A stretch of 64,000 bases of DNA from Chiloscyllium plagiosum (Eukaryota). How positions within the stretch are numbered: position 1 is the first letter of the stretch; each line of letters starts with the position of its first letter. Under the pieces are notes generated by a model. It saw nothing but the letters and a program-made list of their open reading frames with translations, did not search any database and had not been told where the DNA came from. The stretch lies in contig NC_057719.1 in assembly GCF_004010195.1 (NCBI RefSeq), positions 62,126,079 to 62,190,078 on the forward strand. The letters are read 5' to 3'. Position numbers and translations under genes: made by a program. Shown here in pieces: positions 9,099-63,504 of this stretch.

Positions 9099-9543
9099 GA
9101 ATAAAGATTTTTACAAAATACATTAAAATCAGAGATTATCTATGACATGCAAACTTTTCTTAATATGCTGAATGTTGCAATGCTGCTATATTCGTATTTA
9201 TTCTCGGGCATGTTACTTTTCAAGCCTCAAAACGGGGTTAGATTAAAAATGATTTGGGAAGCATTGCTTTGGCTGAAAAGGAATACATAAGATATGATGT
9301 CTTTATGATTGAAGGGGCAGTTTTGAGTTTTGTCATAATGTCATACAAGAAGCACAATCAGAAGTTTAAAGTGTTATGTTTGCATGACAAAGAGTAGGGA
9401 AATGTTCAGATTTTATAAAATGCCACACCTGGGTTGTGCCTCAGAGTCACTTTGCTCTTTAAGGTATTCAAAGTGAACTTGAATGGAATTGAAAGTGACA
9501 AATTTTTGTTTTTGGTCATTCATGTTGCTTGCTTATGTCATAC

Positions 9544-9635
9544 TATCACCTGATGAAGGAGCATCGCTCCGAAAGCTCGTGTGCTTCCAATTAAACCTGT
9601 TGGACTATAACCTGGTGTTGTGAGATTTTTAACTG
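9544..9635 (+). mobile_element. Short Penelope-derived element (family B) carrying an intact hammerhead motif
   Basis: 8-bp TSD TGTCATAC at 9536-9543 and 9636-9643. Family recurs at 18359, 27431, 44693, 50803 and 61572. Confidence 0.85.
9547..9581 (+). ncRNA. Minimal type-I hammerhead ribozyme motif (family B)
   Basis: CAC-CTGATGA-A-GGAGC-ATC-GCTCC-GAA-AGCT-C-GTG: stem I CAC/GTG, 5-bp stem II, palindromic AGCT stem III, predicted cleavage after C9578. Confidence 0.8.
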
Positions 9636-11441
9636 TGTCATACAAGGTGTTGTCTAATTTTGAGAAATGCCATAGGGTTAGGATTAATGTGGTATATATG
9701 TAATCATGGAAGGTGATGTCATAGGGAAGTCATATAATATTACATGGCCTTGCTCTATCTTTCAGCTTTGTGGTATGATGAAGCCAAAGTGAGATATTTC
9801 TTAAAGTTAACATTTTCTGTTCATCTGACATTAAATATTCTCTCACAGCAGAAGACCAAACATGACATAGTTTGTAAAGTCAGATTGTGATAAGATTAAA
9901 CTGTCAGAATTAACATTCATTGTTCATAGCACTGGATACAGATGGCACACCCAACCTGTTTTGGGGTTGCTACTTAAATATTAACACAGGAATTTAACTT
10001 CCTGAAAAAACAAAGAAATGATGATTCAACATTATTTTTCAGCCATTCTTGGAATGTTGAGACACTAGTATTTCCAAGAGCGAATGGAACTTTTTTTTAC
10101 GGCACCAAACTCCTTTGTGAAATCATTTGGTTTTAAAGTTTGTGGAAAGCTTCAAAATCAAGAGCTAAATTGAGGTAACGATCAGTTGGCCAATTCATAC
10201 CCAGCCTAGAAAGAATACTATGATAGGAAAGATTAATTGTTTCATTTTTGTTGCTGTTTTTTACATCAGTGGAATATAAAATTGTTGTCTTTTTTGCCAA
10301 GTTCCAAACTGGAAAAGAAGTTTGGAGCAGAAGATGCCTAAAATTCTCGGTGGAACTTGCCCTTATTAATTAAAGCCTGCACATCATAACGCAAGCTAAT
10401 GGGGAAAAGAGACTGACTTTTTAAAATCAGACTTCCGTTATCTGGTCTGTCTGACAGAAATTCCCAGTTGGCTACATCCAATGTTGGACTGTTGTCAAAA
10501 AGCAGCTGAGAGATGTTTCTACAAGTAAATCAAGCAGTAGAGAGATACATGTGCTGTTGGGCCACTTCAGAATAAAGATTCACATAAGCTGGGTGCTGTA
10601 TGTTTCTCTTATTGATTTGGTCAGATTTGGTTTTGAATTTAGTGTCCCGTGTGGGACTGCAAACATCTTTTTTTAAAACCTTGTGAATACTGTGGATTTG
10701 GATTGTATGGCTGCCCGTGAACCAACCCTTTCAGTCTCCCTGAAACCTGCCCTCTGGGTTAGACATGCAGATTTTGTGGTGGGAAACTGGCACTGGCAGA
10801 ATTATCTTCTCAGGGGGAAAGGCCATGGTCAGTCATCATTATGTGAGGACTTGGTGCCTGATTGAGGGCGTGAATGTGCTGAGAGGCAAGCCTCTGCCTT
10901 TGCTTTGAAACCCCTGCTCTCCTTAATCTCTGCAACCCATTTTTATATGAAACTTGTCATGCGTTAAATATAGCCAGGATTGTCCTGTGATCCTGCGACT
11001 CTGGAAGCTGACTTTCTGACAGCATCCGTGGCCTCCCCAGTGGCACTGGTGAGTGCAAGAGCTACTGTCCTCTGGCTCTCAGTGAGGTGAGACCTTAGCC
11101 CTGAACCCCTCAACAAGATTCCACTTCGCTTTTGCCAAGAGAGTTAACTTGCTCAGATTTCTTTATTCGCATACGGCCATGAATGAGCTTGTTGAGGGGA
11201 GAGATTTGGATTTTAGTTTCGAGGTGCAATTCTGTGCGCTGTCAGAGCCACAGCACAGAGAAGACAGTGGCGATGTAGCAGGAAGCCCTCTATATGACAG
11301 GACCAGAACAAAAAGCAGCAACGCTAAAGAGAAAAAGCTGTGAGGATGTCGACATAGTCTCGGCACCAGCAATAAATCAGAATTGTTATGGCAGCAAACA
11401 ATCGCCAATGTAAACTGGATTTGACTCGGGATGAATTAAAA

Positions 11442-18053: not shown

Positions 18054-18358
18054 ATGAAGTTTATATGTATTTAAGCACGTGTGTGGTTCCTCAGTGTATC
18101 TATTGACTGAAATTGTATCCATTTCGTTTCCTTCTGGGAAAAAAAAGGCAGTTTCTAAATGCAGCTAAAATCAAAGCTGCAGTTCCTACGCCTGAGGTGC
18201 TTAATCCTGTCTTTCAAACCATTGTACAACTTAAATGGCTTTGAAAATGTCTCCATGTTAAGTATTTCCAATATGAAAGAAAGAAAGCATGTGGAAGAAT
18301 ATTTGCAAGCACAGATATGGAGAGAAGAGTGTTGGGCAGGGTGGTAATGTCATTAAAG

Positions 18359-18449
18359 TGCTTCCAGATAAACCTGTTGGACTATAACTGGTGTAGTGTG
18401 ATTTTTTTTTTAACTTTGTACACCCCAGTCCAATGCCGGCACCTCCACA
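18359..18449 (+). mobile_element. Family B element lacking everything 5' of the predicted ribozyme cleavage site
   Basis: 9-bp TSD TCATTAAAG at 18350-18358 and 18450-18458. Body starts (G)TGCTTCCA. Confidence 0.8.
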
Positions 18450-18885
18450 TCATTAAAGGGGAAATTTGAGTGCAAGACACAGCTTTGACAACCTGTCTCT
18501 CAGGCAGTACTTAAGTTAGATACAGCTGAGGACTACCTGTATATCTGAGATAGCTTTGTCAAGGACGAAATTCAGAATCTCAACAAGATTTAGTTGATGA
18601 AAAACCTTTGTGATGATTTGAAATTTGGCATTCTTGCAATTGTCTTGATTGCAAAACAAAAAGATTTTACAACATGTTGCTCATTTTATCAAAGCGACGA
18701 TGGACAGGTATGTCCCTTTGCCGTTTTTCTCTTACTAGAGTAACAATTGAGTCAACACTTAGAATTTAAAATATTTCAACAATAGCTTCTCACCTGCGCA
18801 CACGTCGACGTTTCACATGATGGTTACTCTTGGAGTTCCATATGACACTTGTATTTTTCTTTTGAAAAAAACAAGTACTTTCTGT

Positions 18886-22000: not shown

Positions 22001-23725
22001 TTGAGATGATTTGTAGCTCAGGTTGAGGTTCTGGATGTAGGTTTGCTCACTGAGCTGGAAAGTTCATTTCCAGACGTTTCGTCACCCGATTAAGAAACAT
22101 CTTCAGTGGGCCTCCAGACAAAGCACTGCTGGTGTTTCTTGCTTTCTGTTTATATGTTTGTGTTTTCTTGGGTTGGTGATGTCATTTCCTGTTCTTTTTC
22201 TTAGGGGGTGGTAGATGGGGTCTAACTCGATGTGTTTGTTGATAGAGTTCCGGTTGGAATGCCATTCTTCTAGGAATTCTCGTGTCTCTCTCTATTTGGC
22301 TTGTCCTAGGATGCATGTGCTATCCCATTCAAAGTAGTGTCCTTCTTCATCTGTATGTAAGGAAATTAGTGAGACTGGGTCATGTCTTTTTTGTGGCTAG
22401 TTGATGTTCATGTATCCTGGTGGCTAGTTTTCTGCCTGTTTGTCCAATGTAATGTTTGTTACAGTTCTTGCATGGTATTTTGTAAATGACATTAGGTTTG
22501 CTTGTTGTCTGTATAGGGTCTTTCAAGTTCATTAGCTGTTTTAGTGTGTTGTTGGGTTTGTGGGCTACCATGATGCCAAGGGGTCTGAGTAGTCTGGCAG
22601 CCATTTCCGGGATGTCTTTGATGTAGGAGAGCGCGGCGAGGGTTTCTGGGTGCATTTTGTCTGCTTGTTTGAGTTTATTGCTGAGAAATCAGTGGACTGT
22701 GTTCATTGGGTACCCATCCTTATCGAGTACACTGTATATGTGATTTCCTTCTGCTCTGTGTAGTTCCTCTAAGCTGTAGTATGTGGTGGCTCGCTGAAAT
22801 GAAGTTCTGATGAAGCTTTTTTTGTGGATGTTTGGGATGATTGCTTCTTAATTCAATATGTTGTTTTCCTGTAGACGCTAGTTTGAAGCTGGCCATTAGC
22901 TGTTTGCTATACTGCGACATCTAGGAATGGCAGTTTGTTGTTGTTTTCCTCCTCTTCAGTGAATCTTATGCCAGTAAGGTATTATAGATGGTCTTTAAGG
23001 TTTCCTCTCATTTGTTTCGTTTAATGATGACAAAGGTGTCATCCACGTAGCGGACCCAGATTTTCGGTTGGATGGTTGGCAGAGCTGTTTGCTAAAGTCT
23101 CTGCATTACTGTCTCTGCTAAGAATCCTGATTATTGGCGATCCCATAGGTGTTCCATTGGCTTTTCTGTAGGTTTTGTTGTTGAAAGTGAAGTGTGTGGT
23201 AAGGCGTAGGTCCACTAGCTTGATGATACTGTCCTTGCTGATGAAGTTGGTGGTATTTGGTGTTTGTGTCTCTGGGTCTTCTAATAGTGTAGTCAGTGTT
23301 TCCTTGGCTAGGTTGATGTTGATGAATGTGAACCGGGCTGTTACGTCAAAGGAGACCATTATTTCATCCTCTTCTATCTTGGTGTCGTTGATGGTCTTCA
23401 GGAATTCTTGAGTGGAGTGGATGGAGTGGCATGAGTCTTCTAATAAGAGTTTTAGTCTTTGGTGTAGCTCCTCAGCCAATCTTTAAGTTGGTGCTCCAGG
23501 TAACGAGACTATGGGCCTGAGGGGGGGTGCTCCTGGTTTGTGAATTTTGGGTAATCCATAGAAACGTGGTGTATTGGATCCGTCTGGTTCCATCTTTTGA
23601 AGTCGGTCTTATTTATTTCTCCAGATTTCTGAAGTTGTTTTTGAGTTGGGCTGTGATTCGGTTCTCTCGTTGTGGGGTCGGGTCTATCGCCACTTGTTGG
23701 TAAGTGTTGGTATCTGCAACTAGTG
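22001..23725 (-). mobile_element. Penelope-like retroelement, 5'-truncated and frameshifted (RT + GIY-YIG endonuclease + 3' pLTR region)
   Basis: Minus-strand motifs PRFYGLPKIHKP (~23535-23570), MVSFDVTA, GTPMGSP and WVRYVDDTF (~23031-23058), then GIY-YIG NVIYKIPCKNCNKHYIGQTGRKLATRIHEH (ORF 22380-22655). Confidence 0.93.
22070..22109 (-). ncRNA. Minimal type-I hammerhead ribozyme motif at the 3' end of the Penelope element
   Basis: Minus strand reads CCA-CTGAAGA-T-GTTTCTT-AATC-GGGTGAC-GAA-ACGT-C-TGG: stem I CCA/TGG, partly decayed stem II, palindromic ACGT stem III. Confidence 0.8.
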
Positions 23726-27430: not shown

Positions 27431-27609
27431 GGTGGGCAAAGTTTAAAAAGCACACAACACCAGGTTATAGTCAACAGGTCTGTTTGAATGCACCAGCTTT
27501 TGGTTTGCTGCTCCTTGATGAAGCTTCCAAATAAACCTGTTGACTGTATCCTGGTGCTGTGTGATATTTAACTTTGTCCACCTCAGTCCGATACCGGCAC
27601 CTCCAAGTC
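27431..27609. mobile_element. Family B element in inverted (palindromic) arrangement
   Basis: Left arm CACACAACACCAGGTTATAGTCAACAGG is the reverse complement of right arm CCTGTTGACTGTATCCTGGTGCTGTGTG. Near-TSD AAAAC(C)TCAGGTG on both sides. Confidence 0.8.
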
Positions 27610-28181
27610 AAAACCTCAGGTGAACTCTGACTTTTTTTCTGCAACACTCCAGTTGAGTGGCAAGTCTGTAGCTTTCTTAGGTCTGCTCAATGCAATTTCC
27701 AGAGAATTAGTGTTGTTGGAATTCAAGTTGCCAGACTGGAGATGCTACAGAAGATGTTCAGTATCTTTTCACCATTCTCCAATAGACAAGTTTGGCTCAT
27801 GTGCCTTTTGAAGCAAACTTGGCAGGCGTGACTGCCTGGATCCCAACTGTGTGACCAACTCCATTTCTTCCCATCACCCATGTGCTGTCTGATTGACATT
27901 GGCTCATGGTCTGGCAATGCCTGGATTTTAAGTATTTATCCTGGTTCACATCCCTCAATACTGTCATCCTTCCCTAATTCTGTACTTTCCTTCAGTCCTG
28001 TAACACCCGAAAACCTGACATTCGTAAAATACTGACTTCCTCTGCATTGAATCATCTGTTTCTTCTGCTCCAGTTTTGGTGACTATGCCTTCAGCTGTCT
28101 TGGCCCTTACCTTTTGAAATTCCCTCCTTTTAAAGCTCAGTGCCACTCTGGTACTTTATTTCAAGACAACACTTAAAACTC

Positions 28182-28305
28182 ATTCCTGATGAAGGGCTTA
28201 TGTCCGAAATGTCGATTCTCCTGTTGGATGCTGCCTGACCTGCTGTGCTTTTCCAGCACTACACTCCACTCTGATCTCCAGCATCTGCAGTCCTCACTGT
28301 CTCCT
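28182..28305 (+). mobile_element. Family A element with near-intact hammerhead motif
   Basis: ATTC-CTGATGA-A-GGGC-TTAT-GTCC-GAA-ATGT-C-GATT at 28182-28217, then the family A body. Confidence 0.85.
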
Positions 28306-29888: not shown

Positions 29889-31257
29889 TGTTACAACACT
29901 GGGTAAATCCACCCCCCTGCCCCTGCTAATTTAAACCAGCAACACAGAAAAGGTTTAACCTCCTATTCCTTAAACAAATTACCATAACATACAGATAACT
30001 TTAAGTTCACCTTAACATTTTCCCAATAAAGGTACCTGCCAGTAACCACGTGTTAAGTCCAATTTGGTGATGTAACTGGCTTTACCGACTTTTTCGATAC
30101 AGTTCTCCAATCTAGGAATTGGATATGAGTCTGATTTTGTAGCAGCATTGACCTTCATGCAGAATCGTTGAGTCCCATCCGGTTTGGGAACTAAGATGAT
30201 CAGCGAACTCCACTCGCTCTGACTTGGTTCGATGATGTCCTCTTAGAGCATGGCCTCCACCTCCGTCTGGACCTGTCTGGCTTTGAAAGGATTAAGCTGA
30301 CAAGGGTGTTGTTTTATCAGAGCAGTATTCCCTAAAACTACTTCATGTACAATAACACTGGTCCTCCCCATGTGATTCTCACAAATGGCCTTGTATTGCA
30401 GTAACAAACCTTTCAACTGTATTCCACGCCCCTGAGACAGATAAAACTTACTAACCTATCCCACTCCTCAAGGACTTCTTCATTTTTTAATCTATTTTGA
30501 GGCACATAAAAATCCACATCATTTGGATTTGATTCCTCACTCTGCAGGGCTGTGAGTAACACCTGTTTCTCCAGTTCTTGCTCTCTGCTCGTTCTCGGGA
30601 GGGGACCGACACAATCAATTGTAACCCGTTTGAAAGGTTCTTCAAAAGCGGAAATGGACAACAAAGATGCTGGTTTTATTACCGCCTGTGGCTTACCTGC
30701 CATTTAGCATGTATTACATGTAGGGCAAAAGTTAACCACATCCTTGTGCATTCCAGGCCAATAAAAATGATTTTGTACTTTAGCCTGAGTCTTTCGTACC
30801 CCTATATGACCTTTACAGGTCATTCCTGTGTTACCTGTAACATCACCAGCAACACAATCTGGAGCACTTCGGCCCATTTCTACTCTGCACTAACCTGCCG
30901 TGATCTCCATTTCAATCTCAGAATTCTGTCTTTAAGATAATAACCCTCCGGAATATTCTCTGCCTCCTTTTCAGGATGACGCATCCACATATATATATTT
31001 TTTAATCGCCTTGTCTTGCTGTTGCAAGTCTCTTAGCCTTTCAGGACTAAACACTTCTGTCTGACCCTCTGCCTGTGCACGTTTTTCCTGCACTATTACA
31101 ACAAACAGGGTATCCACTAACTGAACCTCAGCTCCTTCATCTTTCTCTTCGCTTTTCACTTCGTGCTGTGACTTAACGATAGTGGGATATGATCACCACA
31201 CAGTCTGGGAAAATACCAGGATATTTCTGTTTTAATTCCTCAGTTTCTTTGTCTTCC
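29889..31257 (-). mobile_element. Ty3/gypsy LTR retrotransposon remnant of Gmr1 type (integrase upstream of RT), internally deleted, with a probable 3' LTR end
   Basis: Minus strand: HFYWPGM..C..C integrase zinc-binding region and PFKRVTIDCVGPLPRT (30413-30800), then RT IKQHP...EWSSLIILVPKPDGTQRFC...DSYPIPRLENCIEKVGKASYITKLDLTRGYWQVPL (~30028-30370). Terminus ...TGTAACA at 29889. Confidence 0.88.
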
Positions 31258-31552
31258 TCCGCACTGGGCCGCTCCCTCCGCCAGGGCCCCGCTCCGCACT
31301 GGGCCGCTCCCTCCGCCAGGTCCCGCTCCGCACTGGGCCGCTCCCTCCGCCAGGGCCCCGCTCCGCACTGGGCCGCTCCCTCCGCCAGGTCCCGCTCCGC
31401 ACTGGGCCGCTCCCTCCGCCAGGGCCCCGCTCCGCACTGGGCCGCTCCCTCCGCCAGGGCCCCGCTCCGCACTGGGCCGCTCCCTCGGCCAGGGCCCCGC
31501 TCCGCACTGGGCCGCTCCCTCGGCCAGGGCCCCGCTCCCTCAGCACTGGGCC
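31258..31552. repeat. GC-rich 34/35-bp minisatellite, about 8 copies
   Basis: Unit GCACTGGGCCGCTCCCTCCGCCAGGGCCCCGCTCC with a 34-bp variant (CCAGGTCCC). Copies nearly identical. Confidence 0.97.
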
Positions 31553-31689
31553 CCCCTTGGCCAGGGTCCCCGATCCCGTTTCAGAGGCCGGGTGTCCTAG
31601 GCCAGAAATCAGAAGAAAACCATGCGAGGAAAGGTGGAGAAAAGTGAGAATAAGAACAGGTGGAGCATCCTACTCTCGCCACCATCTTA

Positions 31690-44115: not shown

Positions 44116-44692
44116 AGTGTGGTAGGAGGCAGCATTATTGAAGATTAAAAAGAAAATAATTCTGTTTATTTTTCCAATTCATTGTAATGATCCAAGTAAA
44201 ACCTCTGTTCTAATTTCATTTTGCCTCACATTTGAATGTTATTTCAACTCTCGGGGATTTTCAGTTGGTAAATGCTTTTAGTATGGTTTACTCGTGAAGA
44301 TCTCCATAGACAACAATAACTTCTTTTAAAAGAGATCAATTTCCCAAATGAACAATGAAACTAAATCAATGGACAAGGTTTCACTTTTCAAAACTTTTAG
44401 TGTTTGACAAAATGAACATTAAATAATAGGCAAGTAATACATCAGACAAAAGAAAAAGATAAGTTTTATATTAAGAAATAGCATCAAAATTGGACTTGTG
44501 AAATGTTTTAACAGTGCCATACTTCTTGCAAATGTGTAGCATTAAAAGAATAGTCAAAATACCTCCCAGCAATACAGCAGGTATTCACCTCTTTCTGCTA
44601 TGCCAAGTAAATACTTCCAGTGCCCTTCGACAGTCTTTCCACTTCACCTGAGTATTTCTGGATGTGATGAGGTACTCCTTGATGAATCTCAA

Positions 44693-44893
44693 TTTGGAGA
44701 TGCTGGTATTTGACTGGGATGTACAAAGTTAAAAATCACACAACACCAGGATATAGTCCAACAGGTTTATTTGGAAGCACTAACTATCAGAGCGCTGCTC
44801 CTTCAGGTGGTTGCACAACGACTGATGAAGAAGCAGTACTTCGAAAGCTCATGCTTTTAAATAAACCTGTTGGACTATACTCTGGTGTTGTAG
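44693..44893. mobile_element. Family B element, inverted pair, hammerhead motif in the right arm (44822-44850)
   Basis: Left arm on minus, right arm on plus. Right arm CTGATGA-A-GAAGC-AGT-ACTTC-GAA-AGCT-C. Confidence 0.8.
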
Positions 44894-47800
44894 ATTCATC
44901 AAGTTAAAAATCACACTAGTCTTGTGGGCTACACCAGTTCAAATAATTTTGAATTCTAGCATTTACACACTCCATCAAAAGGGTGTTGGGTCCAATAAAA
45001 TTCCTTTCTCCAAAGAGAGCTTTTCGTCTGCTGTCTCTACTTTTTTCATATATAGAAACATGGTCCTGGGGGAAGTTCTAATTCTTCCCTTGCCTGTGTC
45101 TCTGGAGCTGCTGTTCTTCATTCAGCAAGATAGTATGAGAGTGTTAAAACTGACACCTGCCACTCTAACAGGTTTCTATTTGAGCTTCTTGCCTTGCGGC
45201 AATCTAAAGTCAAATGTGTCACTTCCCCAAACCAAGTTGCTCATTACTATTACGCCCTTTCTATTTTCGAGTTTCTATTACACCCTTTTGAGAATGTTCT
45301 TGCACTAGGAGATTTAATGAGACGTTTAAAATGTAATCACCTCACAATTGACTGCATTCCTCTCAGCTGTTAGGGGTAGTTTTATCTGTGATGTTGCAGT
45401 CAATCTTCAAGCTCAGTAAATTAGATTGTATCTTGAGATCAAATGTTCATTGATTTATTAATCATAAATTTCATGCAATAACATTGAGGTGCACACTTAA
45501 ACCATAGTACTTGTTGCCATCTCCATTTGTTGAGGACTCAAACTCCGCTCTGTTCCTAATATTTAGGTTAGCCAAATTCTCTCACTCCAAACTTCAAGCC
45601 AGACATCTGCTGATGTCAGGAACTATTTAAAGGTAGTATCCAGGACCCAAGTCCAGGATTCCTCAACCACTTTGCTCGGTTTTCTGATGCTTTTGAGTTT
45701 TTTCCCCTTTTTTTAAGGGTTGAGCTGGGTTAAGTTGTAAACCTGGTGGGTACCATTGTGGTGAGAGGCATGACCGACTGCTTCACAATTTTGATGGAGT
45801 CGGGCCGCTGTACTTTAAAGGCTTCTGCTTCATGCTAAATAATCTGTTGCAAACCATAATCTGGATGAGAGAATTATCTGAAAAGTAAATGCAAAAAGCT
45901 CTCTCATACCGAGGTATGGCAGGTTCTTGGCCATTGACACAGCCTACACCACATAGAAACAAATAACTCGATAGTGGAACTTGACTATGAAAAAGCCAAG
46001 TGATTCAGACAAGTGATGAACAGTGATTCATACAAAATTCTGTTTTCTGCTACTGGGCAATAAAAATGTCATTCATCTAGATCCTTTAAAATTTCAATAA
46101 TTGAAACCATAAGGCAGTTAAAGCCACATAACTGTATGTAAACAAACTTAGTGAAATTGTTTGAGATGGACATTTCGGCTGTCAATCAAACAGATTCCTG
46201 GGTGTTTCAACCTCCTACAGGTCGGCCACTGTTCCCCCAAACATAGCAAGCCAAGAATAAAAATAGCAAGTGCTGGAGAAACTCGGCAGATCTGGAGACA
46301 GAAGCCAAATTAATGTTTTGTGTCAAAACCAGAGCTTTTCCACTTGTGATGGTGATTGCTTTAAATTCCTCACTTTGTATCACCACCTGATGTTCGCTTG
46401 TCACTGGGAACGTTTCTAGGTAAGCTACTGTGAAGACTGACACCCAACACCTGTTTGAATGCCTCTATCATTTCTTTGCTTCTCATTATCAATTCCTCAG
46501 ACTATCTCTCTGCTTGGAGGATCAGCATTTTGCTTTGGTTATTAGTCTTCCTTTATATAGGTCTTTTGGTATAATGCACATTTCGTCAACATGAATTGGC
46601 TATAACATGATTGAATTCTGGATGCTGTTTGGAATGATACAAACCCTCTACTGAATGGGTATAGTTAGTGGTTTTCGAGAGCGGTTTCCCATAACATGGG
46701 GTTGCAATGGAACACAACTGTTGCATTGTAGCAGAACCACCTGTACTTGTGGAAACTCCTACCAGCTGGCATTCTCTCATACACTGCTTTCTGCCTCCAT
46801 TATCTTTTTGGTTATTCTTCCCTGGTTTGTAAAGTGTGTCCAGTCCTCTAACCTACCACACCTCTTTGCAGGTTTGTGCTTCATCTTGCTTTCTGTCCAA
46901 CAAGTCCTAGACTTTGTTGCCTGCAGCCAAACCAGCTGCTCCTGCAGTATCCCCAACGTCAAGTCTTTGTGAGTAATTCTCACTTTCGTGGCAAGTACCT
47001 TCACATCTCCAATACCCAGTAAACATGGATCAACCCCCCCCCTCCCCCCCTTTCTTACAAATTGCAAATTCACTGAACGATAGACGTCAAAATGTGATGG
47101 TGCATCTCCAACAAAATTCTCTCTCCATGTCAAAATCTGCCCAAGATGTAGTTCAGTTTCGCCCCAGAATTTCTGTAGTCACTATTTCTTTTTCAGAGTT
47201 CAGTTATGCTTCCCGACATAACAAACAAAGGTTGATTGGATTTTTGTTTATATTGTGGTAATGTTCGCATCGACAGTAATACATGAGCATGCAAGTCGGT
47301 CAGATATCTGTTTCCTTTGAAGTGGAAAATTGAAATATTGAAGTGATCATGAAGGAAAGGCTTGCATTTGTATAGTGCTTTTTGACCCCAGGACATTCCA
47401 AAGTGCTTTACAGTCAGTGAAGCATGAAGAATATTTGAATTCTTCAATATACTGTTCCCCCCCACCCTGCAGAACACTTGGAAATTACTTCATCGCCTTG
47501 TTAATTGTGGCCTCCCTTTATCCAGAGTTAGACTGATTTTTAATAGATCATGTGTTGAAGGGTTGTGGGGAGAAGGCAGAAAAATGCAGGTGAGGAGCAT
47601 ATCAGCCATGATTGAATCGTGGAGCAAACCTGATGGGCCAAATGGCCTACTTCTGCTCCTATATCTTATGAACTAAGATCCTTATTACGTACATTTATAT
47701 GTTGAGCAGTCACAGTTTAGGGTATTTCAAAGTTCAGCACAAAATGCATTTTTGTCAATTAAATGTAGCATACTCTAGTCATAATTGCGTGCATAACCTG

Positions 47801-49573: not shown

Positions 49574-50802
49574 ATAGAATCACACAGCATGGAAACAGAC
49601 CATTTGGTCCAACCAGTCCATTCTCCCTACATATTGTTTCTCTGCACAGTTTTGACTTTTTTTTTAAATCCCCCTAGCTCCGAAAAAAACGTCCCTGAGG
49701 CAAAACCCTGAAATTTGATCTCTGTTGTTGTATCGACACTAAATGGATTGCACTGGCTCACAAATGAGGCTCACTCTCATCTTCTCAAGGGACAGATCAT
49801 AAGTGTGGGGCCAGCCAGCAGTCAACCCATCCTGTCAGTGAATAAAACAAAGAAAAAATAATACTTCACCACCTTACAGGCTTGTATGTATTCTGTCAAC
49901 ATTTTTAAAATTAGGAATGTAGTTGATTAATGTGACAATTACCAGGTGCTCTGTTGAGTGTTGATCAAGGGATGGATATTGAAGAAGAGCAAGAATACTC
50001 CTGGACCCCAGTCAGGCAGGTAAGATCTCCATTTGTTGTCACATCCAAAACAATAGCATCGCAGACAGTCCACGACTCCCTCAGCATCACACTGGAGTCT
50101 CAGACTTGGCCTTTGCACTTGACCTTGTGTTTCGGAGGCTAGAATGGAGAGTTGCGATTCAGAGATCGAGAGGCCATGAGATTGAGTGACAGGTCTAGCT
50201 TGTACTTCCATGACATGTTGCACTTTTCTCCAGCACACATTGCTGATTAATACCACGACTCTAAAACCATGTAACGTCAACAGGAGGTCTGTTAGAATGT
50301 AATAAGGAGGAACATTAGGAAGAGATTGGACAGTGGACGAAGACAAAAGGCGTTGTTGTTCTGCTATGAGTGATTTATGCACCTGTTAACACCACACTGT
50401 GGGGAATTGATTTCAAAAGCCAAGTTTCTTTGATTAGTTTGAACTTGGAGTAAGGCTTCGTTGTAGTTGGTGAGTTTTATTCATGCAGATAGTGTTGAAT
50501 ATTGCTCATTGTAACTAAAATAGCTTGACTTCAACTGATTACCTAACACAGAGTTTTTAAGATTGTGCTTTGGAGCAAATGCTGACTCTTGAGTTTTTAC
50601 CTCTGTATAAAAATTTAGTGTTGTTTACAGGACAGAAAGGAGGCCATGCAAACCAATGTGTCCATGCTGCCTCTATGTGGAGTGAGCCCATCGTTCTCAT
50701 TCCCTCTGTAACCTTGTGGCCTTACAGTTTATAACCTTCAAGTGCCTATCCAATTTCTTGGTAAAAGTGTTGGTAGACGTGGACAGCCATGATGTGGGTG
50801 TG

Positions 50803-51045
50803 CAGGTGTTGGACTGGGGTGGACAAAGTTTAAAAATCACACAACACCAGGTTATAGTCCAATAGGTTTGTTTAGAAACACTAGCTTTTGGAGTACTGCT
50901 CCTTTGTCAGTTGGTTGGAGGCTATCCCACTAGCTACCTGACAAAAGACTCACTAGCTCCTGACAAGGGAGCAGCTCTCCGAAAGCTTATACATTCAAAT
51001 AAACCTGTTGGACTATAACTTGGTGGTATATGATTTTTAACTTTG
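50803..51045. mobile_element. Family B element, inverted pair
   Basis: AAAATCACACAACACCAGGTTATAGTCCAATAGG on the left and CCTGTTGGACTATAACTTGGTGGTATATGATTTT on the right. Both hammerhead cores are degenerate. Confidence 0.8.
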
Positions 51046-57589: not shown

Positions 57590-58670
57590 CTCAGCAGGAG
57601 CAGATAATTGAGCCCATTGAGTCCGCAACACCATTCAATATGATCATGATTGATTTGATGATCCTTAACTCCATTCTCTTGCCTTTTCCTTGTCATCCCT
57701 AATTCCCTTACTGATGAAAAATCTTCCTGAGTTTTGAATATGCTTAGTGACCCAGCCTCTATATTACTCTGTGGTGAAGAATTTCATACATTTACCACCT
57801 TCTGAGGGAAGAAACTCCTCTCATCTGCGTCTTTCAATGGGAGACCTGTTGTTCAGAAATTATGTCCCTTGGTTCTAGACTGTCCCTCGAGAAAGTAAAC
57901 CCCTTTATTTCCAGGTAAAAACAATGACTGCAGATGCTAGAAACCAGATTCTGGATAAGTGGTGCTGGAAGAGCACAGCAATTCAGGCAACATCTGAGGA
58001 GCGGTAAAATCGACATTTCGGGCAAAAGCCCTTTACTGCTCCTCAGATGCTGCCTGAACTGCTGTGCTCGTCCAGCACCACTAATCCAGAATGCCTTTGT
58101 TTCTACCCTGTCTTGTTCTCTAAGATTCTTGTGTATTTAAACAAGGTTGTTTCTCATCTATATTCCAACAAGTACAGGCCTGATCTGCACAACTTCTCCT
58201 CATACAGTCGCTCCAAACCTGGGATCTGAAACCTGGGACTACCTCTAATGCCAGAATGCCTTTGCTGAGATGAAGGGCCCAGAGCTGTTCACTGTATTCC
58301 AGCTGTGGCCTGACTAATGCCTTATATAGTTTTAGCAAGATTTCCCCGCACTATTTTTATGTTCAATTCCATTTGAAATAAAGGCCAACATTCCATCTCC
58401 ATTTCCTCTTGCCCTCTAAACTTGGAGTTGTAGCTTTTTGTGCGTCATGGGGAAGGACTACCAAATCCCCCTGTTTTATAGCTTTCTGCAGTCCTTCTCC
58501 ATCTAAATAATGTTTAGCTCCTTTATTCTTCCTGCCAAAATGCATAACGTTATGTTTTGCCACATTATAATCCATCTGTCAAGTTTTTGTCCTCTTGCTT
58601 AACCTGTCTATATCCCTCTGTAGACTGTGTCTCTGCCTTATCCCTTGCCTTCCCACCTATTTCTGTGTCA
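57590..58670 (-). mobile_element. Old CR1 LINE 3' fragment, interrupted at 57913-58092
   Basis: ORFs MLKLYKALVRPQLEYSEQLWA and MDYNVAKHNVMHFGRKN. Confidence 0.85.
57913..58092. mobile_element. Family A element, inverted pair
   Basis: 61-bp inverted arms 57948-58008 / 58032-58092 around a 23-nt loop holding the antisense hammerhead stem II. Possible TSD CCTTT(A/G)TTTC at 57902-57911 / 58094-58103. Confidence 0.85.
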
Positions 58671-61571: not shown

Positions 61572-62092
61572 AGAGTATTGGTTTGGGGTGGACAAAGGTC
61601 AAAATGGCACAACACCAAGTTATAGTCCAATGGGTTTATTTGCAAGCACTAGCTTTTGGAGCACCACTCCTTCATCAGGTGGTTGTGGAGGTTAAGATCA
61701 TAAGACACAGAATTTACATAAAGCTCTATGTAAAACTCTGTAAAACTATACAGAGGGTTTGTCGGTCTTACATAGCATAGGTACACAGACAGACTTCACA
61801 CCGACTGTTTAAAAAGCTGAGCTATCTTGAGAATATCATTTAAAAGAATTTCTGGGATTTGCATATGAAAGAACAAAAACCAGCACATCCCATTATAAAA
61901 GATGAAAGTTTTAATCTAAGATTGTTTACTGAATCGCATCTCCATGACACTGGACTCCTTTGGCTATAAATTCTGTGAGCATGATCTTAATCTCCACAAC
62001 CACCTGATGAAGGAGCAGTGCTCTGAAAGTTAGTGATTCCAAATAAACCTGTTTGACTATTACCTGGTGTGGTGTGATTTTTAAGTGTTTGT
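61572..62092. mobile_element. Family B element, long inverted pair with a hammerhead motif in each arm
   Basis: Arms ~61592-61723 and ~61958-62092. Minus-strand CAC-CTGATGA-A-GGAGT-GGT-GCTCC-AAA-AGCT-A-GTG near 61647-61681; plus-strand CAC-CTGATGA-A-GGAGC-AGT-GCTCT-GAA-AGTT-A-GTG at 62001-62035. Confidence 0.85.
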
Positions 62093-63146: not shown

Positions 63147-63504
63147 CCTTCCCCCACCTCATCCTAGTTTCTAACCTCCAGCAACACGATCCCCTGACTT
63201 GTCCGGACTTGTCCGACCTGCCCAGCTCCTTTTCCACCTATCCACTCCACCCTCTCCTCCCTGACCTATCACCTTCATCTCCTTCCCCACTGACCTATTG
63301 TACTCTATGCTACTCTATCCCCACCCCCACCCTCCTCGAGCTTATCTCTCCACGCTTCAGGCTCTCTGCCTTTATTCCTGATGAAGGGCTTTTGCCCGAA
63401 ACGTCGATTTTGCCTGTCCTCGGATGCTGCCTGAATTGCTGTGCTCTTCCAGCGCCACTGATCCAGAATCTGGTTTCCAGCATCTGCAGTCATTGTTTTT
63501 ACCT
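63147..63504 (+). mobile_element. Young family A Penelope-derived element with intact hammerhead motif
   Basis: Perfect 9-bp TSD AGTTGACGC at 63138-63146 and 63505-63513. C/T-rich 5' part, CpGs retained. Confidence 0.88.
63374..63409 (+). ncRNA. Minimal type-I hammerhead ribozyme motif (family A)
   Basis: ATTC-CTGATGA-A-GGGC-TTTT-GCCC-GAA-ACGT-C-GATT: perfect 4-bp stem II, palindromic ACGT stem III, predicted cleavage after C63405. Stem I is short and imperfect. Confidence 0.78.

Follow-up and report, generated by a model that had tools for sequence, protein, structure and literature searches.

The 92-base insertion at positions 9536–9643 of the window (the whole 64,000-nucleotide stretch of Chiloscyllium plagiosum DNA analyzed here) is real and ordinary, being a passive stub of the pseudo-LTR of a Penelope-like element (PLE). 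With a probability of about 0.7, this stub would be the product of a reverse transcriptase (RT) that began copying the capped mRNA of the element within its 5' leader and ran off the front, leaving a hammerhead that is predicted to be inactive alone. Taken by itself the 9536–9643 copy matters little, the mechanism of its family being more informative.

The insertion, its parent family and its locus

The word TGTCATAC is present at 9536–9543 and again at 9636–9643, both on the plus strand and with 92 bp between them, which recovers exactly the 8-bp target-site duplication (TSD) that the original prediction had placed around the insertion. Exact repeats of at least 8 nt surround 7/34 solo copies of the family (the 9536–9643 copy included) versus 7/1,122 mismatched flank pairs, and a comparison of the left flank of this copy with 98 other right flanks gives 0/98 repeats. 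A direct repeat at both ends is above chance, as in TPRT with TSD, and the proposal of a retrotransposed, TSD-flanked insertion is supported. Family homology extends from 9542 to 9638, overlapping the left TSD by 2 nt (the last two letters of this TSD copy are also the first two of the element leader) and the right TSD by 3 nt, so the exact ends of the insert are uncertain by those bases. The 3' end of the insert, placed at 9631–9638 on the plus strand, corresponds to the nearer of two family 3'-end clusters, its last 3 nt being those that overlap the right TSD. Overlaps of this kind between TSD and element recur often in the set of 14 solo copies that have TSDs.

The stub could also be conceived as the remnant of a longer copy shortened by deletion, with the 8-bp repeat due to chance or to deletion microhomology. 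This origin is scarcely credible in view of the chance rate of 7/1,122 and the location of both ends on family hotspots, even though element homology extends into 5 of the 16 TSD bases, recombination or deletion has been held responsible for some solo repeats that lack a TSD (PMC3846280), and no empty site was seen in the contigs of a second species (organism B, described below).

Matches to the family show 95–98% identity over query positions 7–103, and longer copies extend both ways. Thirty-seven segments were found in 727,529 bases of 76 random loci, about 51/Mb, which amounts to roughly 180,000 in a genome of 3.56 Gb, and the 39-nt tail word has 19,291 exact genome copies. At locus L106, a 437-amino acid open frame with a CX4CxxC linker and a GIY-YIG-like motif is followed by the repeat. 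The comparison of this frame with RVT_1 gives E 1.1e-5 and 25.6 bits, below the cut-off of 29.6; the Pfam search returned no GIY-YIG family and no uninterrupted full-length ORF was seen, the GIY-YIG-like motif being presumably that of an endonuclease (EN), a label based on known motifs read by eye. The linker, CHGGRCKTC in L106 and L093–L097, fits the CX2-5CxxC pattern between RT and EN that defines the Neptune and Nematis clades (PMC8557442), and by this linker the family is of the Neptune/Nematis type. Moreover, at locus L243 (G000:C1:13305001-13314500, minus strand) the repeat leads into an ATG and a frameshifted ORF of ~2.2 kb that starts at about +130 (numbered from the predicted transcription start), with an RT 74–82% identical to that of L106. 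The family resembles EN+ PLEs in that the pseudo-LTR occurs on either side of the ORF, truncated copies are found in inverted orientation and a tail of 30–40 bp is optional. Judged from its sequence, the insert derives from the pseudo-LTR of an abundant PLE.

RT frames of a different PLE-like family are present at L103:4239-5455 (minus strand) and are also matched in several random loci; this RT, encoded on the opposite strand and employed here as a probe alone, is 34–43% identical to the RT of L106, L096 and L095. Also, two tRNA matches lie near a family copy at L255:141-231 and 1022-1094.

In the window, the next family copies are at least 8.8 kb away from the 9536–9643 copy, which is single, outside any tandem array, and carries neither promoter nor ORF. 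The stub would therefore not move again by itself.

For organism B, three DNA runs gave contigs from 9607/9608 to 10150 with 19–20 differing letters, the right flank having about 3.5% substitutions. These contigs begin inside the element with 28–29 element letters, fewer than the 31 letters of the bridging rule, and no joint skipping the insert was found among the 15/18 joints shown. Positions 9218–9489 are uncovered in all four DNA runs, the left side being unreadable. The insertion is likely shared with organism B, and an empty-site comparison consequently needs a more distant species. At position 10014, all four DNA runs, one of them from the same species as the window, carry 11 extra bases; at this point the window holds a deletion allele or an assembly error.

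As for expression of the locus, no RNA data set was listed as containing this copy; the reads of RNA run 1 left the flanks uncovered in the roughly 2% of the run that was read, and RNA run 2 gave a single unspliced contig at 9748–9898. No recognizable host gene was found, a scan for splice signals giving 68 weak candidates, and a possible mini-exon near 9767–9789 was set aside for want of support. A GC-rich 35-bp tandem repeat of about 8–9 units occupies positions 31250–31567.

The minimal hammerhead and its predicted activity

A minimal type I hammerhead motif with the architecture described in PMC4209133 lies at 9547–9581 on the plus strand. Stem I pairs CAC (9547–9549) with GTG (9579–9581) over 3 bp and stem II pairs GGAGC (9558–9562) with GCTCC (9566–9570) over 5 bp, while the core is made up of CTGATGA (9550–9556), an extra A (9557) and GAA (9571–9573). 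Stem III is a loopless palindrome, AGCT, at 9574–9577, and the predicted cut falls after C9578. The motif is as written in the original prediction, with all core nucleotides intact, and the tail of ~55 nt given there corresponds to the 54 nt that follow the motif up to 9635. The intact stem pairs also claimed are those of stems I and II, whereas stem III, being loopless, can pair only intermolecularly.

The CUGANGA...GAAA core, the G10.1–C11.1 pair, the extra base after A9, the UH cut triplet, the palindromic 15.2–16.2 without a helix III loop and the location within a PLE terminal repeat (loci L106, L096 and L243) are those of a minimal hammerhead. The helix III loop, the longer helix I and the Rfam match of a canonical type I hammerhead competent as a monomer are lacking, Rfam giving no hammerhead match at the insert either at the gathering score or at E ≤ 10. 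Since stem III is a loopless AGCU palindrome, the motif could work only as a dimer, and the window contains no intact partner of the same family on the same strand. Nine core-like motifs are found in the window, and only in the one at 9547–9581 does an intact palindrome accompany stems I and II of 3 and 5 bp. In this sense it is the best preserved motif in the window, but one that is predicted to be inactive alone.

The folding results point in the same direction. The unconstrained fold has a z of −0.89 and forms no hammerhead, and in the 108-mer the probability of stem I is 0.007. CACC (9547–9550) pairs with GGUG (9614–9617) with P about 0.69 in the 108-mer, competing with stem I, and P of this helix becomes 0.001 once flanks are added. 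The double-hammerhead fold is predicted to lie 6.5 kcal/mol above two free monomers, or 11.9 kcal/mol with flanks, energies that exclude tertiary contacts and proteins. With a dimer required, no same-strand partner in the window and a monomer fold that hides stem I, the idea of an active ribozyme as it stands is not supported, and the hammerhead of the 92-base stub is predicted to be inactive alone. In related systems, a single minimal PLE hammerhead from Schistosoma did not cleave and its dimers cleaved weakly (PMC4209133); the hammerhead of an Anolis element cleaved only with protein, and in vitro insertion did not require this hammerhead (PMC11167929).

The preservation of the motif can be understood from the age of the copy. 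Only one substitution separates it from its nearest copies over 9542–9634, an equally perfect motif is present in 26/65 sampled family copies and in 12,389 copies genome-wide, and at 2–3% divergence a 35-nt motif stays unmutated 34–49% of the time. Intactness thus reflects youth and needs no selection. An active ribozyme under selection, cutting a host transcript together with a protein or a trans partner, would account for the intact core and stems and for the probable presence in the second species, and the Anolis hammerhead does cleave when the element protein is added (PMC11167929). Nonetheless, such a function is very improbable given the abundance of equally perfect copies, the 34–49% chance of an unmutated motif, the unfavorable predicted fold and the finding that no read joined the element to the locus flanks (about 2% of RNA run 1).

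Genomic 5' ends located at the predicted cut amount to 37 matches, in comparison with 20, 13 and 53 at three control positions, the last of which spans two subtypes. Inspection of 25 matches at the cut showed 4 mutated read-through copies, 12 inverted and 9 solo, and Rfam, applied to 20 of these 25, detected no U6. In RNA run 1, no pile-up of read ends was observed at 9578/9579, where the 32-nt 3' product would probably escape alignment.

Other motifs of this kind are present in the window. A second stub of the same family, at 18350–18458 on the plus strand, has 91 bp between 9-bp repeats TCATTAAAG; it starts within one base of the predicted hammerhead cut and reaches the far 3' end, so that it may have been copied from a cleaved RNA. 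At 27431–27610, 44692–44896 and 50785–51045, the same repeat forms head-to-head (inverted) pairs whose hammerheads have decayed, and a wider pair is formed by 61575–61716 (minus strand) and 61959–62084 (plus strand). Minimal hammerheads of a second family, having an ACGU palindrome and a stem II of 4 bp, occur at 28186 (plus), 63378 (plus) and 57913–58046 (minus), the copy at 63378 having an intact core and a stem I of only 2 bp. A third hammerhead-like motif at ~22070–22110 (minus strand) shows a CUGAAGA core, a long stem II region, an ACGU palindrome and a 3-bp stem I.

Copy ends, transcription signals and proposed origin of the stub

The ends of the family were mapped on 98 young copies out of the first 100 tail-word matches listed, a set in which both arms of inverted insertions are counted, not all copies being independent. 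Among the matches listed, 96 young copies have a readable 5' end, which falls within 11 nt upstream of C3 in 45, inside the hammerhead region in 26, in the next 188 nt upstream in 11 and beyond in 14. For solo copies, 18/33 5' ends lie at −12 to +4, and 49/83 bounded copies carry an inverted arm at the 5' end. The 3' ends of the 98 young copies form two clusters (43 and 54 copies), one at about +86 to +103 and the other, which coincides with the ATG, at +124 to +135. The same 3'-end pattern is seen in an unselected set of 41 segments, of which 1/41 ends in the +60 bin; the corresponding count in the young set, 0/98 with an end at the poly(A) site, was discarded, because the selecting word extends past that site.

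The 9536–9643 copy combines the commonest 5' end with a 3' end in the nearer of these clusters. Half of the 14 solo copies with TSDs (7) measure 86–97 bp, and 5 are shorter than 92 bp. The stub belongs to a common size class (7/14) and is not the unusually small retrotransposed unit it was first thought to be. A common size class with TSDs could reflect a separate, non-autonomous mini-element resembling a retrozyme or SINE, whose 90-nt unit is transcribed, cleaves itself and amplifies, and non-LTR retrozymes derived from PLE repeats are described in one chondrichthyan (bioRxiv 10.64898/2026.07.22.740005). This alternative is quite improbable, however, since copy ends vary (86–130 bp), the nearest copies, one substitution off, are long and extend upstream, and the stub has no promoter and is not tandem. 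Moreover, its 5' end lies 36 nt upstream of the cut instead of at the cut, where family 5' ends are not sharply enriched (the 37 matches against 20, 13 and 53).

The commonest 5' end coincides with a predicted transcription start (+1) at 9542 on the plus strand. Upstream of this family hotspot, which sits at the edge of the hammerhead, 71 copies were scored for TATAAA: 41 have it starting at −30, 10 at −32 and 2 at −28, and 18 lack it; the 9536–9643 copy has no counterpart of this box and no extra G. A total of 4,624 copies continue through +1 with templated upstream bases. The templated C before +1 is missing in 1,957 matches, and among the matches listed the base at this position is G in 79/100. 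The excess of G is seen at head-to-head junctions (18/19), with solo copies showing it in only 2/6, and the inverted arm could template the G in 10/21 G cases, leaving 11/21 unexplained by the arm. An extra G from cap copying is known in other retroelements. Because poly(A)-anchored reads end by read length, it is only from genomic copies that we infer that the hotspot would be the transcription start and the extra G a copy of the cap.

The hotspot could alternatively be a structural stall, the RT pausing or switching template at the hammerhead domain and the match with a start site being coincidental. The CACC:GGUG helix (P about 0.69 in the 108-mer), the inverted 5' arm of 49/83 bounded copies and the possible templating of about half of the G cases by this arm are consistent with a stall; the TATA at a fixed −30, the 11/21 G cases that the arm does not explain and the fall of the helix to P 0.001 with flanks speak against it, and on balance we consider it unlikely.

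In the tail, a polyadenylation hexamer ATTAAA lies at 9590–9595 (plus strand); this position reads ATTAAA in 201/244 copies and AATAAA in 24/244. The family poly(A) site, known from family RNA reads of other copies, corresponds to 9607–9610 (plus strand, about +67), and it is followed in the sequence by a GU/U-rich stretch at 9614–9630 (plus strand), which we take to be a downstream poly(A) element. In RNA run 1, A-runs begin after 9607 in 206 reads and after 9610 in 253 (459/948 aligned reads), and 515/948 aligned reads continue upstream into the family promoter segment. The number of genomic copies with an A-run at the 9607–9610 point is 0. Since the reads carry A-runs that are absent from the genome, family RNAs that enter from upstream receive their poly(A) at about +67, some 30 nt beyond the predicted cut, with the hammerhead left uncut. 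At 9578 most reads have an A, and no read extends into the locus flanks, so they derive from other copies. If read through in sense, the stub would be more likely to serve as a weak poly(A) signal than to function as a ribozyme, and the roughly 180,000 segments of the genome with a poly(A) hexamer could shorten host transcripts when in sense.

Under the leader-copy origin favored here, the RT would start within the 5' leader, where the repeat precedes the ORF, and on a capped monomer it would reach the front of the RNA after about 93 or 130 nt, the nearer 3' cluster representing one such internal start. Nicked target DNA would prime the synthesis through 2–3 nt of microhomology at each end, repair would yield the 8-bp duplication, and integration at the front end would produce the stub, a dead-end copy of the capped 5' leader. 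To copy further, the RT would have to jump to the 3' repeat or work on a circle or a tandem transcript. In an Anolis element, two internal RT starts bound the optional tail, and the enzyme also needs RNA downstream (PMC11167929). The 3' clusters match these two starts and the optional 30–40 bp PLE tail, which leads to their reading as RT starts. On the other hand, the site at which the Anolis RT started has no homology to its target (PMC11167929), which leaves the microhomology priming step tentative, and the 26/96 5' ends inside the hammerhead, not at +1, go against the reading of the hotspot as a transcription start.

A broader model, which we put forward tentatively and hold at somewhat less than even odds, is that the pseudo-LTR may work as a retroviral U3-R-U5, with a TATA box at −30, the cap at +1, the poly(A) site at ~+67 and RT starts at ~+93 and +130, the stubs being failed strong-stop products. 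If so, each full-length mRNA would carry the hammerhead twice, supplying the dimer partner, and the RT would jump to the 3' repeat or go around a ribozyme-made circle to copy the rest. The stubs of 90–130 bp would be integrated strong-stop products, each with a portable poly(A) signal. Literature searches, covering mostly non-subscription journals, listed no paper in which cap copying or strand transfer is proposed for PLEs. Taken together, the stubs of the family map where the RNA of the element probably starts, where it is polyadenylated and where its reverse transcription begins. They make it testable how a retroelement that begins reverse transcription near the front of its RNA copies the rest, and what purpose its hammerhead serves.

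Comparison with known systems

Minimal hammerheads in PLE pseudo-LTRs were described in 2014, mostly as single motifs ascribed to truncated PLEs (PMC4209133). The motif at 9547–9581 shares with those of Cervera and De la Pena (PMC4209133) the type I topology, the extra base between 9 and 10.1, the G10.1–C11.1 pair, the palindrome for helix III, the dimer requirement and the occurrence mostly as single motifs. Stems I and II have 3 and 5 bp here, whereas in the Schistosoma family of that work they have 4–5 and 7–8 bp. Also, the start-site hotspot, the extra G and the poly(A) site found here have no described equivalent in its results and discussion.

A comparison with the non-LTR retrozymes (bioRxiv 10.64898/2026.07.22.740005) reveals a shared PLE origin, non-coding nature and type I hammerhead. 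However, these retrozymes are described as tandem arrays with one hammerhead per unit, and the 9536–9643 copy, being a single stub, was rejected as a member of this class.

The insertions of EN+ PLEs (PMC8557442; PMC3846280) share with the family strong 5' truncation, inverted truncated copies, the 30–40 bp optional tail, TSDs of 8–10 bp, a putative TATA plus initiator in the repeat and microhomology at the 5' junction. Unlike the canonical EN+ PLEs as described there, about half of the young copies analyzed here stop within 11 nt of one point. The internal promoter of the Drosophila Penelope element lacks a TATA box and comes with an intron (PMC2377424).

Finally, the Poseidon element PAc from Anolis (Frangieh et al. 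2024, PMC11167929) has internal RT starts that bound an optional tail, as here, and its farther RT start lies about 120 nt from the hammerhead, a distance similar to that in the present family. The terms template switch, strand transfer and polyadenylation are absent from the main text of that work. Its hammerhead is inactive without protein, and the one reported here is predicted to be inactive alone. Nonetheless, the shark family has a CX4CxxC linker and an ATG at about +130, after the tail, whereas the ATG of PAc lies inside the hammerhead (PMC11167929).
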